DNA of 64,000 bases from the NCBI RefSeq assembly GCF_050920415.1, contig NZ_CP169309.1. One strand, written 5' to 3'. Of the stretch, positions 2,975 through 25,650 are shown piece by piece; position 1 is the first letter of the stretch, and every line of letters begins with the position of its first letter. The notes below the pieces were generated by a model. It searched no databases. It was given only the letters and a program-made list of their open reading frames with translations, and had not been told where the DNA came from. Origin of the DNA: Escherichia coli. Lineage in GTDB: Bacteria; Pseudomonadota; Gammaproteobacteria; Enterobacterales; Enterobacteriaceae. A program made the translations under genes and the position numbers.

Positions 2975-4492
2975 ATGTGCGGTATTGTCGGTATCGCCGG
3001 TGTTATGCCGGTTAACCAGTCGATTTATGATGCCTTAACGGTGCTTCAGCATCGCGGTCAGGATGCCGCCGGCATCATCACCATTGATGCCAATAATTGC
3101 TTCCGTTTGCGTAAAGCGAACGGGCTGGTGAGCGATGTCTTCGAAGCTCGCCATATGCAGCGTTTGCAGGGCAATATGGGCATTGGTCATGTGCGTTACC
3201 CCACGGCTGGTAGCTCCAGCGCCTCTGAAGCGCAGCCGTTTTACGTTAACTCCCCGTATGGCATCACGCTTGCCCACAACGGCAATCTGACCAACGCTCA
3301 TGAGTTGCGTAAAAAACTGTTTGAAGAAAAACGCCGCCACATCAACACCACTTCCGACTCGGAAATTCTGCTTAATATCTTCGCCAGCGAGCTGGACAAC
3401 TTCCGCCACTACCCGCTGGAAGCCGACAACATCTTCGCCGCCATCGCCGCTACAAACCGCTTAATCCGCGGTGCGTATGCCTGTGTGGCGATGATTATCG
3501 GCCACGGTATGGTGGCTTTCCGCGATCCTAACGGTATTCGTCCGCTGGTACTGGGGAAACGTGATATCGACGACAATCGCACAGAATATATGGTCGCTTC
3601 CGAAAGCGTTGCGCTCGATACCCTGGGCTTTGAGTTCCTGCGTGATGTCGCCCCAGGCGAGGCGATTTACATCACTGAAGAAGGGCAGCTGTTTACCCGC
3701 CAGTGCGCTGACAACCCGGTCAGCAATCCGTGCCTGTTCGAGTATGTTTACTTTGCCCGACCAGACTCGTTCATCGACAAAATTTCCGTTTACAGCGCGC
3801 GTGTGAATATGGGCACCAAGCTGGGCGAGAAAATTGCTCGCGAATGGGAAGATCTGGATATCGACGTGGTGATCCCAATTCCGGAAACCTCTTGTGATAT
3901 CGCGCTGGAAATTGCTCGTATTCTGGGCAAACCGTACCGCCAGGGCTTCGTTAAAAACCGCTATGTTGGCCGCACCTTCATCATGCCTGGCCAGCAGCTG
4001 CGTCGTAAGTCCGTGCGCCGTAAACTGAACGCCAACCGCGCCGAGTTCCGCGATAAAAACGTCCTGCTGGTCGACGACTCCATCGTCCGTGGCACCACTT
4101 CTGAGCAGATTATCGAGATGGCACGCGAAGCCGGAGCGAAGAAAGTGTATCTCGCCTCAGCGGCACCGGAAATTCGCTTCCCGAACGTTTACGGTATCGA
4201 TATGCCGAGCGCCACGGAGCTTATCGCTCACGGTCGCGAAGTAGATGAAATTCGCCAGATCATCGGTGCTGATGGTTTGATTTTCCAGGATCTGAATGAT
4301 CTGATCGAAGCCGTCCGTGCGGAAAACCCGGATATCCAGCAGTTTGAATGCTCGGTGTTCAACGGCGTTTACGTCACCAAAGATGTTGATCAGGGCTACC
4401 TCGATTTCCTTGATACTTTACGTAATGACGACGCTAAAGCCGTGCAACGTCAGAACGAAGTGGAAAATCTCGAAATGCATAACGAAGGATAA
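2975..4492 (+). CDS. purF: amidophosphoribosyltransferase (glutamine PRPP amidotransferase)
   Basis: 505-aa ORF starting MCGIVGI (Ntn-type catalytic Cys after Met); PRTase motif [13 protein letters not shown]. Confidence 0.97.
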
Positions 4493-4586
4493 TGACTTCG
4501 CTCAGGGTGCCGGTCTGGCACCCTGACTTGCAACTCCCGCTGAAATCCTGCAAAGTCTGCCTGCAAGTCTGACAGGGCAACTATTT

Positions 4587-5156
4587 ATGAAACGACTCAT
4601 TGTAGGCATCAGCGGTGCCAGCGGCGCGATTTATGGCGTACGATTATTACAGGTTCTGCGCGATGTCACAGATATCGAAACGCATCTGGTAATGAGCCAG
4701 GCGGCGCGCCAGACCTTATCCCTTGAAACGGATTTCTCCCTGCGTGATGTGCAGGCATTAGCCGATGTCACGCACGATGCGCGCGATATTGCCGCCAGCA
4801 TCTCTTCTGGTTCTTTCCAGACGTTGGGGATGGTGATTTTACCCTGTTCAATCAAAACCCTGTCCGGCATTGTCCATAGCTATACGGATGGTTTACTGAC
4901 CCGTGCGGCAGATGTTGTGCTGAAAGAGCGTCGCCCGCTGGTGCTCTGCGTGCGTGAAACACCATTGCACTTAGGCCATCTGCGTTTAATGACTCAGGCG
5001 GCAGAAATCGGTGCGGTAATTATGCCTCCCGTTCCGGCATTTTATCATCGCCCACAATCCCTTGATGATGTGATAAATCAGACGGTTAACCGTGTTCTTG
5101 ACCAGTTTGCGATAAATCTACCCGAAGATCTCTTTGCCCGCTGGCAGGGCGCATAA
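4587..5156 (+). CDS. ubiX: flavin prenyltransferase UbiX
   Basis: 189-aa ORF MKRLIVGISGASGAIYGVRLLQVL, flavoprotein fold typical of UbiX/Pad1. Confidence 0.95.
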   Translation: MKRLIVGISGASGAIYGVRLLQVLRDVTDIETHLVMSQAARQTLSLETDFSLRDVQALADVTHDARDIAASISSGSFQTLGMVILPCSIKTLSGIVHSYTDGLLTRAADVVLKERRPLVLCVRETPLHLGHLRLMTQAAEIGAVIMPPVPAFYHRPQSLDDVINQTVNRVLDQFAINLPEDLFARWQGA

Positions 5157-5337
5157 CTCCGCTGTTGCCCTGTTTCAGGGCAATTTTGCAACCGCGATCA
5201 AATCCTCAACATTTTGTTCCTGCCATTCAATCGAAACGCTGCGATCCAACCGCCATACCTGCTATCTTCAACTTCAGGACAATAATGCAACGTCTTATTA
5301 ACATATTTAACGTTGGATGTTACTGTTGTCGTCAAGA

Positions 5338-5353
5338 TGGCATAAGACCTGCA
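5338..5353 (+). promoter_or_regulatory. sigma54 (-24/-12) promoter upstream of argT
   Basis: TGGCATAAGACCTGCA fits the TGGCAC-N5-TTGCA consensus with correct GG/GC spacing, about 70 bp upstream of argT; argT is known to be nitrogen regulated. Confidence 0.45.
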
Positions 5354-5420
5354 TGAACGAGCCTGCAAACACACAACACAATACACAACATAAAAAAGCC
5401 ATTTCACTTGAGGGTTATGT

Positions 5421-6203
5421 ATGAAGAAGTCGATTCTCGCTCTGTCTTTGTTAGTCGGGATTTCCGCAGCAGCTTCCAGCTACGCGGCGCTGCCGGAGAC
5501 GGTACGTATCGGAACGGATACCACCTATGCACCGTTCTCATCGAAAGATGCCAAAGGTGACTTTGTTGGCTTTGATATCGATCTCGGTAACGAGATGTGC
5601 AAACGGATGCAGGTGAAATGTACCTGGGTTGCCAGTGACTTTGACGCGCTGATCCCCTCACTGAAAGCGAAAAAGATCGACGCCATTATTTCGTCGCTCT
5701 CCATTACGGATAAACGTCAGCAGGAGATTGCCTTCTCCGACAAACTGTACGCCGCAGACTCTCGTCTGATTGCTGCCAAAGGTTCACCGATTCAGCCAAC
5801 GCTGGATTCACTGAAAGGTAAACATGTTGGTGTGCTGCAGGGATCAACCCAGGAAGCGTATGCCAATGATAACTGGCGCAGTAAGGGTGTCGATGTGGTG
5901 GCCTATGCTAACCAGGATTTGGTCTATTCCGATCTGGCTGCAGGACGCCTGGATGCCGCTCTGCAAGATGAGGTTGCTGCCAGCGAAGGTTTCCTCAAGC
6001 AACCTGCCGGTAAAGATTTCGCTTTTGCAGGCCCTTCAGTGAAAGACAAAAAATACTTCGGTGACGGCACCGGTGTCGGGCTACGTAAAGATGATGCTGA
6101 ACTGACGGCTGCGTTTAATAAGGCGCTTGGCGAGCTGCGTCAGGACGGCACCTACGACAAGATGGCGAAAAAGTATTTCGACTTTAATGTCTACGGTGAC
6201 TGA
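5421..6203 (+). CDS. argT: lysine/arginine/ornithine-binding periplasmic protein
   Basis: 260-aa ORF with signal peptide [22 protein letters not shown]; paralogous to the following hisJ. Confidence 0.93.
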
Positions 6204-6420
6204 TACGTCGCAGGGAAGCTGTACCTGATGGAATGATCATGGTGCACGCCAGGTTTGTTGCACTATCGTGGTGCATTAAAATGCATACTTAAGCATTTTT
6301 AATGAAAAATAATACGTCTAACGGGGCGGGATATTTTGCCTTGATGGTCAATTTTATGGCACGATAAGTGTAACAAACCTGTAAATATTCCCTATAAAAA
6401 GACTGTCAGTTGAGGACATT

Positions 6421-7203
6421 ATGAAAAAACTGGTGCTATCGCTCTCTCTGGTTCTGGCCTTCTCCAGCGCAACGGCGGCGTTTGCTGCGATTCCGCAAAA
6501 CATCCGCATCGGTACCGATCCGACCTATGCGCCATTTGAATCAAAAAATTCACAAGGTGAACTGGTTGGCTTCGATATCGATCTGGCAAAGGAGTTGTGC
6601 AAACGCATCAATACGCAATGTACGTTTGTCGAAAACCCACTGGATGCGTTAATCCCGTCCTTAAAAGCGAAGAAGATTGACGCCATCATGTCATCGCTTT
6701 CCATTACGGAAAAACGTCAGCAAGAAATTGCCTTCACCGACAAACTGTACGCTGCCGATTCTCGTCTGGTAGTGGCGAAAAATTCCGACATTCAGCCGAC
6801 AGTCGAGTCGCTGAAAGGCAAGCGCGTAGGCGTATTGCAGGGCACCACCCAGGAGACGTTCGGTAACGAACACTGGGCACCAAAAGGCATTGAAATCGTC
6901 TCTTATCAGGGGCAGGACAACATTTATTCTGACCTGACTGCCGGACGTATTGATGCCGCATTCCAGGATGAGGTCGCCGCCAGCGAAGGTTTCCTCAAAC
7001 AACCCGTTGGTAAAGATTACAAATTCGGTGGCCCGTCTGTTAAAGATGAAAAACTGTTTGGCGTAGGGACCGGCATGGGTCTGCGTAAAGAAGATAACGA
7101 ATTGCGCGAGGCACTGAACAAAGCCTTTGCCGAAATGCGCGCTGACGGTACTTACGAGAAATTAGCGAAAAAGTACTTCGATTTTGATGTTTATGGTGGT
7201 TAA
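6421..7203 (+). CDS. hisJ: histidine-binding periplasmic protein
   Basis: 260-aa ORF with signal peptide [22 protein letters not shown]; followed by hisQMP. Confidence 0.93.
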
Positions 7204-24432: not shown

Positions 24433-25650
24433 TTACAGCTGATGATAACCAGAAAGGAAACGCGCGAACTTACTCAAAGACAGCTCGATATCATCAACAC
24501 GTGGTAGCGTGACAATGCGGAAGTGATCCGGCCACGGCCAGTTGAATGCTGTCCCTTGAACCAGCAGGACTTTTTCCTGCAACAGGAAATCCAGCACCAT
24601 TTTCTGGTCGTCGTGAATGTTAAAGCGTTTAGCGTCGATTTTCGGGAACATGTACAGCGCACCGCGCGGTTTCACGCAGGAAACGCCCGGAATATCGTTG
24701 ATCAATTCCCACGCACGGTTACGCTGTTCATAAAGACGCCCGCCGGGTGTAATAAATTCACTGATGCTCTGATAACCGCCCAGCGCGGTTTGAATGGCGT
24801 GTTGCGCAGGAACGTTAGCACACAGGCGCATCGAAGCCAGCATTTCCAGACCTTCGATGTAACCTTTAGCGTGTTTTTTCGGCCCGTTCAGCACCATCCA
24901 ACCCTGACGGAAGCCCGCAACGCGGTACGTTTTCGACAGTCCGTTAAAGGTTATGGTTAGCAGGTCTGGTGCCATCGCGGCAATTGAGTGATGCTCGGCG
25001 TCGTCATAGAGAATTTTGTCGTAAATTTCATCGGCGAAGATAATGAGATTATGCTGACGCGCAATCTCCACAATCTCCATTAAAAGCTCTTTGGAATAAA
25101 CTGCGCCGGTTGGGTTATTTGGGTTGATAATAACGATTCCACGCGTACGAGGCGTAATTTTAGCGCGAATATCATCAAGGTCCGGGAACCAGTCAGAGGA
25201 TTCATCGCAAAGATAATGCACCGCTTTACCGCTGGATAGCGAAACCGCCGCAGTCCAAAGAGGGTAATCAGGCGCAGGAACTAACATTTCGTCCCCGCTG
25301 TTCAGCAATGCCTGCATTGCCTGAACGATAAGCTCCGATACACCATTGCCGATGTAAATATCTTCCACGGTAACATCACGCATGCCACGAGCCTGGTAGT
25401 GCTGCATGATGGCTTTACGCGCGGAGTAAAGCCCTTTGGAATCGCAATACCCTTGAGCGGTAGGCAGGTTGCGAATCACGTCAACGAGGATTTCATCTGG
25501 CGCGTCAAAACCGAACGGGGCAGGATTGCCGATGTTCAGTTTCAGTACCTTGTTACCTTCTTCTTCCAGGCGTTTTGCTTCTTTCAGCACCGGACCACGG
25601 ATGTCGTAACAGACATTCTCTAATTTGCTGGATTTTTCAATGGGGGACAT
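24433..25650 (-). CDS. alaA: glutamate-pyruvate aminotransferase AlaA
   Basis: 405-aa ORF MSPIEKSSKLENVCYDIRGPVLKEAKRLEEEG; fold-type I aminotransferase with PLP-lysine region SKTYRVAGFRQGW. Confidence 0.93.
   Translation of the reverse strand: MSPIEKSSKLENVCYDIRGPVLKEAKRLEEEGNKVLKLNIGNPAPFGFDAPDEILVDVIRNLPTAQGYCDSKGLYSARKAIMQHYQARGMRDVTVEDIYIGNGVSELIVQAMQALLNSGDEMLVPAPDYPLWTAAVSLSSGKAVHYLCDESSDWFPDLDDIRAKITPRTRGIVIINPNNPTGAVYSKELLMEIVEIARQHNLIIFADEIYDKILYDDAEHHSIAAMAPDLLTITFNGLSKTYRVAGFRQGWMVLNGPKKHAKGYIEGLEMLASMRLCANVPAQHAIQTALGGYQSISEFITPGGRLYEQRNRAWELINDIPGVSCVKPRGALYMFPKIDAKRFNIHDDQKMVLDFLLQEKVLLVQGTAFNWPWPDHFRIVTLPRVDDIELSLSKFARFLSGYHQL

Follow-up and report, generated by a model that had tools for sequence, protein, structure and literature searches.

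Conservation, published occupancy and regulatory surroundings of argTp, a documented sigma-54 promoter in the ubiX-argT spacer of Escherichia coli

The DNA analyzed here (hereafter the window, 64,000 nucleotides) is a segment of the E. coli chromosome with the gene order accD-folC-dedD-cvpA-purF-ubiX-argT-hisJQMP-rpnB. The stop codon TAA of ubiX (5154-5156, plus strand) forms the left boundary of a spacer that occupies exactly positions 5157-5420 (264 bp) and ends before the ATG of argT at 5421. The argT coding sequence (5421-6203, plus strand) encodes a lysine/arginine/ornithine-binding periplasmic protein and is preceded by a Shine-Dalgarno element, GAGGG (5410-5414, plus strand), of which the GG is invariant across species. 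The ubiX-argT allele of the window (4587-6203) is rare: of 5,425 complete E. coli genomes, only 5 reach an identity of 99% or more, most being 95-99% identical to it and about 96% identical over a 381-bp promoter query. Over the length queried, the window is 100% identical to E. coli strain MFDS1022581. Rfam returned no matches in 5050-6450.

The spacer had been proposed to contain conserved GG and GC dinucleotides at the exact spacing of a -24/-12 promoter. This was confirmed on the plus strand at 5338-5353, where TGGCATAAGACCTGCA combines a -24 element TGGCAT and a -12 element CTGCA, with GG at 5339-5340 and GC at 5351-5352, 12 bp from start to start. The sigma-54 consensus is TGGCAC-N5-TTGCW, and its canonical -24/-12 spacing is the same as that of the argT core. 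The core points at argT, with 83 bp between the T of TGGCA and the ATG and a predicted leader of 57 nt. On its own, the sequence match is weak evidence, only marginally beyond chance. The pattern TGGCAYN5YTGCW has three matches in the 64 kb against 0.48 expected, a number reached by 1 of 100 shuffles, and the argT core departs from the full 16-mer consensus TGGCACGNNNNTTGCW by three mismatches, a level at which the 64 kb contain 124 matches against 129 expected. Among the three pattern matches, that of argT alone is intergenic and faces a gene start, and two, argT (OS22) and arnT (IS28), are published sigma-54-bound sites. The arnT match, TGGCATGGAGCCTGCA (56887-56902, minus strand), lies inside the gene and corresponds to the intragenic site IS28 (Bonocora 2015), also described as a class III repressive site (Schaefer 2015). 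The third, TGGCACCAGACCTGCT (24959-24974, minus strand), lies within alaA in the sense orientation; it is absent from the main text of Bonocora 2015 and is probably a chance match.

Conservation was assessed on argT loci taken from 80 Enterobacteriaceae species, with alignments that cover 81 sequences. Upstream of argT, TGGCAY-N6-TGCA is kept in all 80 species and the stricter TGGCAYN5YTGCW in 56 of them, the sole variable base being the one just 5' of TGC. The T of TGGCA precedes the argT ATG by 66 to 105 bp, with a mode at 82-83. The approximately 20 bp directly upstream of the -24 element are free to vary across species, and the conservation of the core is therefore selective. One could still read the motif as a chance resemblance in front of a gene driven by sigma-70 only, given that sites with three mismatches to the 16-mer are about as frequent as expected by chance and that a sigma-70 start does exist at argT. 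We find this reading scarcely credible, for it has to contend both with conservation in 80/80 species beside a freely varying neighborhood of 20 bp and with the binding of sigma-54 to this sequence, observed directly, in vivo and in vitro, in two species. It is the position, the orientation, the conservation and the published occupancy that make the argT core more than a chance match.

Two further observations concern the sequence around the core. In the natural isolate E. coli B27 (NZ_AP027424.1; 2669-3070), ubiX is absent and about 250 bp of unrelated sequence stand in place of everything up to the -12 element of argT, with the join at window position 5352/5353, so that argT of B27 is without the sigma-54 core, its GcvB leader being still present. 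In addition, an inverted repeat orthologous to window 5313-5335 is found in Citrobacter, Salmonella, Enterobacter, Kosakonia and others, within the 20 bp between a TTTAACG block and the -24 element. Its sequence varies and its pairing is kept (for example, CGTCGA..TCGACG, TTGCGA..TCGCAA and CAGTC..GACTG). This repeat is not evident in Escherichia, where a sigma-70 -10 element occupies that place.

The argTp core and its interpretation are already published, and the membership of argT in the Ntr regulon is documented. The assignment of 5338-5353 to a sigma-54 promoter for argT, made in the preliminary description, is supported by the published record of the identical sequence, obtained by ChIP-seq, ChIP-chip and gSELEX, as well as by the conservation in 80/80 species. 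In E. coli K-12, ATGGCATAAGACCTGCA is the sigma-54 ChIP-seq site OS22 for argT, with a fold-above-threshold (FAT) score of 12, a distance to the gene of 58 and a PSSM score of 9.457, in the middle to lower range among bound sites (Bonocora 2015). At that time, in 2015, the EcoCyc status of the promoter was "predicted" (Bonocora 2015). In Salmonella, ChIP-chip detected sigma-54 on the same argT sequence, the expression of argT was 3.5-fold higher in the wild type than in a ΔrpoN strain when a constitutive activator was supplied, and argT counts as one of four experimentally established sigma-54 operons (Samuels 2013). Furthermore, gSELEX with the RpoN holoenzyme gave a peak in the argT/ubiX spacer of 61% alone and 55% with NtrC (Shimada 2021), and argTp was the best sigma-54 promoter for pathway expression in the study of Ma 2020. 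The K-12 promoter has the same 16-bp core, the same ubiX-argT-hisJQMP context and the same distance to the ATG as the window, apart from an indel of 1 nt in the leader; over the whole spacer, the two differ by six substitutions and this single indel of 1 nt, none of them in any functional element. The sigma-54- and NtrC-dependent argT promoter of Salmonella Typhimurium likewise has a 16-bp core and a gene context identical to those of the window. The window argTp shows no functional difference from those of K-12 and Salmonella and differs as a rare allele. The literature covered, which extends neither to the original Salmonella footprinting and deletion work nor to E. coli dRNA-seq starts, yielded no base-resolution argT start under nitrogen limitation. 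Altogether, we consider it very probable that argTp, a promoter of argT that depends on sigma-54 and is activated by NtrC, has its core at 5338-5353.

Control of argT by nitrogen through NtrC, also claimed at the outset, finds support in the literature, namely in NtrC ChIP, in induction upon deletion of glnK and in reviews. The argT gene was listed as Ntr-induced from expression analysis, and an NtrC ChIP-seq peak over its promoter was reported, albeit weak (5.4-fold, added by eye) and far below the 23.7-fold peak at hisJQMP (Brown 2014). Published NtrC gSELEX gave no peak above the 40% cut-off in the argT spacer. Deletion of glnK, which raises the level of NtrC-P, increased native argT expression 3.2-fold and that of an argTp-lacZ fusion at the lac locus 2.4-fold, the boundaries of the fragment not being given (Wang 2016). 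A 2019 paper on arginine regulation and reviews describe argT as controlled by sigma-54 and NtrC and apparently not by ArgR. The NtrC ChIP bin at argT spans 80 bp, at about 5293-5373 in the window, and was rejected as a locator of the NtrC binding site, because the bins track sigma-54 motif centers. Indeed, the bins of glnA, nac, glnH, astC, glnK, ddpX, rutA, patA and yhdW in the same table sit on or a few base pairs from the center of the sigma-54 motif and not on separate upstream sites, so that the 80-bp bin at argT cannot place the NtrC site.

A pair of NtrC sites was expected further upstream, and only half of this expectation stood, in the form of one weak palindrome at -190 (5166-5182), whereas the distal partner at -221 is missing from the window. 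The strict consensus TGCACC-N5-GGTGCA, which had been recommended for the search, gave no site with up to three mismatches in 4108-6258; weaker sites required the degenerate consensus TGCACY-N5-RGTGCA and a weight matrix. Positions are given relative to the predicted sigma-54 start, placed 26 nt after the T of TGGCA (window 5364). A position scan found NtrC-like palindromes in most genera at the fixed positions -221 and -190, 30 bp apart. According to the alignment, a 24-bp gap right after the ubiX stop codon in Escherichia removes exactly the distal -221 palindrome; its junction (5157-5165, between 5161 and 5162) was defined by alignment, position scan and base counts. Salmonella and Citrobacter retain decayed copies of the distal site. 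Over 69 unique sequences, the base counts of the distal site match TGCACY-N5-RGTGCA base by base, and dyad symmetry is often broken at inner positions. Judging from these counts, the distal element has the features of a site recognized by a protein, as opposed to those of a hairpin. Positions 5138-5154 were considered as a decayed distal site in the window and rejected, as the alignment identifies conserved C-terminal coding sequence of ubiX; the NtrC matrix score of the remnant at 5135-5153 does not exceed 0.3 bits.

The proximal palindrome, TGCCCTGTTTCAGGGCA (5166-5182), is centered at -190 from the predicted sigma-54 start, and its counterparts stand at -190/-191 in most of the 81 sequences. 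It has four mismatches to TGCACC-N5-GGTGCA and two to TGCACY-N5-RGTGCA, and its matrix score of 11.2 bits is the third best of about 64,000 positions (background -26.8, standard deviation 9.0), a score that is slightly circular given that some proximal sites are among the 73 orthologous sites from which the matrix was built. Across species, only 1 of 32 unique variants of the palindrome has the consensus A at position 4, and Watson-Crick or G-U pairing is kept, which suggests that the element behaves more like a hairpin. As RNA, TGCCCTGTTTCAGGGCA is predicted to form a hairpin of 9 bp with AAUUUUG on its 3' side (-16.3 kcal/mol, z -2.45), and the palindrome may double as a weak terminator of ubiX. 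A plain intrinsic terminator was discarded, as the element is not called by a strict scan and the T-run is not conserved in Enterobacter. The proximal palindrome is also the left end of the 197-bp argTp fragment (Ma 2020).

The strongest NtrC sequence of the window lies on the other side of argT. The argT-hisJ spacer contains an NtrC half-site, GGAATGATCATGGTGCA (6230-6246), and a near-perfect site, TGCACTATCGTGGTGCA (6259-6275), which is the best match to the consensus and, with 22.6 bits, the best in the 64 kb. The two are 29 bp apart and stand at +903 from the argT start. A strong K-12 NtrC ChIP-seq peak, the 23.7-fold enrichment given above for hisJQMP, coincides with the position of this hisJ-side site (Brown 2014). 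A sigma-54-like core, TGGCACGATAAGTGTA (6357-6372), is found 3' of these sites. Bonocora 2015 gives no sigma-54 ChIP site for hisJ, although NtrC ChIP is strong there. All 80 species keep the -24 element TGGCAC of this core, at -63 to -67 relative to the ATG of hisJ; the -12 element reads CTGCA, the canonical form, in Citrobacter, K. oxytoca and others but GTGTA in Escherichia.

The well-known promoter glnAp2 has a pair of strong NtrC sites in its upstream region, separated by about three helical turns. Like argT, glnAp2 combines a -24/-12 core with NtrC as the activator, and the argT palindrome pair of other Enterobacteriaceae, with its 30-bp separation, resembles the glnAp2 pair. In contrast to glnAp2, the NtrC sites of argT are much further upstream (-221/-190), and argT of the window has no distal site and a weak proximal one. 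NtrC occupancy differs in scale, with 5.4-fold at argT and 71-fold at glnA (Brown 2014). At E. coli argTp, NtrC probably acts from the weak -190 site, from solution or by looping from about 900 bp downstream. The response of the relocated argTp-lacZ fusion favors local sufficiency for NtrC activation, within a fragment of unstated boundaries.

Between the palindromes and the core, the spacer contains several blocks that are deeply conserved at fixed distances. They comprise AATTTTGCAACCGCGATCAAATCCTCAACATTT (5183-5215), in which GATCAWATCC is found in 81/81 sequences, a short block at 5238-5244, CCTGCTATCTTC (5258-5269, at about -100) and TTATTAACATATTTAACG (5295-5312); the conserved motifs include the invariant TG.TATCT and TTATTAACAnATTTAACG. 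From the -190 palindrome to the promoter, a distance of 190 bp, the genera differ by almost no indels, which suggests a phased nucleoprotein architecture. The block at 5295-5312 includes TTAACA (5298-5303), whose distance to the downstream TGGCA is exactly 40 bp in 71 of the 81 sequences, and may be a site for a bending protein at the sigma-54 promoter, at about -60. An IHF site at 5295-5312 is a hypothesis with a poor match, only seven of the nine positions of the core WATCAANNNNTTR matched and the key C missing, and we found no literature for IHF at argT.

The same TTAACA also serves as the -35 element of a sigma-70 promoter candidate, in combination with a 17-bp spacer and the -10 hexamer TACTGT (5321-5326), which forms part of an extended -10 element, TG-t-TACTGT (5318-5326, plus strand). 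TTAACA-17-TACTGT is the top relaxed sigma-70 candidate in the spacer and predicts a start at 5333; a strict promoter scan misses it, its -10 matching just three of six positions. The candidate fits Table S3 of Schaefer 2015, where the sigma-54 motif of argT stands at +6 to +22 of an active sigma-70-like start. From this placement, sigma-70 transcription would begin near 5332, about 32 nt 5' of the sigma-54 start. Among the 81 sequences, the -10 hexamer (TACTGT or TAATGT) was seen only in E. coli proper, whereas TTAACA is widely kept; block 5295-5312 would therefore have another, older role. Finding a sigma-70 promoter only had been named in the preliminary description as an outcome that would contradict a sigma-54 promoter. 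A sigma-70 start has indeed been published, yet it stands beside the sigma-54 promoter and not in its place, so that framing the two as alternatives is ill-posed. The strength of the commonly used 197-bp argTp fragment, which holds the sigma-70 as well as the sigma-54 promoter, is not creditable to sigma-54 alone.

In cells that were not nitrogen-limited, argT reads in the presence of rpoN amounted to 23% of those in cells without sigma-54, such that bound but unactivated sigma-54 represses the sigma-70 promoter of K-12 argT about 4-fold; in vitro, sigma-54 cut sigma-70 abortive synthesis by 10-60% (Schaefer 2015). Together with mdfA and topA, argT is a named member of the class II sigma-54-repressed sigma-70 promoters, whose sigma-70 start is closely followed by the sigma-54 motif (Schaefer 2015); the locus is the same and shows no difference in the window. 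Without nitrogen limitation, the sigma-54 site of argT is thus a brake and not a promoter. It could be argued that, in E. coli, the site is mainly a parking place for sigma-54 which represses the overlapping sigma-70 promoter and supports little sigma-54 transcription. The read counts, the position of the motif at +6 to +22 and the abortive synthesis data all fit this idea, as do the best sigma-70 candidate in the spacer, which predicts the same start, the confinement of its -10 hexamer to E. coli proper, the degraded NtrC enhancer of Escherichia and the weak or absent NtrC binding at argT. Yet raised NtrC-P induces argT as well as the isolated argTp-lacZ fusion (Wang 2016), expression analysis places argT among the Ntr-induced genes (Brown 2014), and Salmonella argT depends on sigma-54 when an activator is supplied (Samuels 2013). 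Moreover, the core is kept in 80/80 species, most of which have no recognizable sigma-70 -10 element, and a brake on a promoter confined to one lineage would hardly account for this. As the main function of the site, parking thus appears unlikely to us; besides, it does not exclude the promoter role.

Our preferred reading remains that of a sigma-54 promoter activated by NtrC, whose transcript would begin near 5364, as inferred from the position of the -12 GC. In K-12, a start at the position equivalent to 5364 reproduces the 58-bp distance of Bonocora 2015. From this predicted start, the transcript would open with a C/A-rich leader, TGCAAACACACAACACAATACACAACA (5364-5390, plus strand), which pairs almost continuously with nucleotides 63-92 of the small RNA GcvB (R1 region; K-12 record). 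The pairing begins at the predicted +1, which fits a start at about 5364. Of 12,792 windows across the 64 kb (mean -14.8, standard deviation 4.2), none pairs better with R1 than this leader, at -36.8 to -37.0 kcal/mol. GcvB was restricted to its R1 region in this control, because long unconstrained duplexes, such as those of full-length GcvB with windows of 87 nt, inflate the energies and are uninformative. The argT mRNA figures among the listed R1 targets of GcvB, with verification in Salmonella and a place among the top interactome matches in E. coli. C/A-rich leaders are common to the R1 targets dppA, oppA, gltI, livJ and argT, the stretch being 27 nt long in argT; in contrast to the others, the argT site is paired from the very first nucleotides of the sigma-54 transcript onward, and about 32 additional nucleotides precede it in the sigma-70 transcript.

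Our current working model is as follows. Under all conditions, RNA polymerase containing sigma-54 binds the -24 GG and the -12 GC to form a stable closed complex, as published ChIP and gSELEX data show for the identical sequence. Upon nitrogen limitation, NtrC-P would contact this complex and ATP hydrolysis would open it, with transcription starting near 5364; here, the dependence on NtrC comes from the literature and the start from the geometry of the motif. Most Enterobacteriaceae would deliver NtrC from the -221 and -190 palindromes, while Escherichia, which retains the weak -190 element only, probably relies on that element, on NtrC from solution or on looping from the hisJ-side sites. We infer the use of the -190 palindrome by NtrC, as well as whatever the hisJ-side sites may contribute to argTp and the conserved blocks may do. 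When NtrC is inactive, sigma-54 parked at +6 to +22 lowers the output of the sigma-70 promoter about 4-fold, as published for K-12. Finally, the leader made from either start would carry the GcvB R1 target (5364-5390) and expose argT to post-transcriptional repression under amino-acid-rich conditions.

The argTp core itself adds nothing new; the new details are the weakened upstream enhancer and the overlapping housekeeping promoter, and the comparison of spacers marks, in addition, several deeply conserved blocks at fixed distances. These comparative details should be useful to those who employ argTp as a part in metabolic engineering and to those who model the Ntr regulon, and they explain the weak NtrC occupancy and the strong sigma-54 occupancy of E. 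coli argT. We tentatively propose, as a possibility that we hold to be less probable than its contrary, that Escherichia argT has been partly rewired, the 24-bp loss of the distal site, which left one weak palindrome that doubles as the ubiX hairpin, and the gain, in E. coli proper, of an extended -10 element (TGtTACTGT) beside the older TTAACA having yielded a dual promoter with a sigma-54 brake. If true, a purely NtrC- and sigma-54-dependent promoter would have been turned into a dual one in which the closed complex brakes sigma-70 when nitrogen is plentiful, and activation by NtrC would proceed through a minimal enhancer or through the strong hisJ-side sites about 900 bp downstream.
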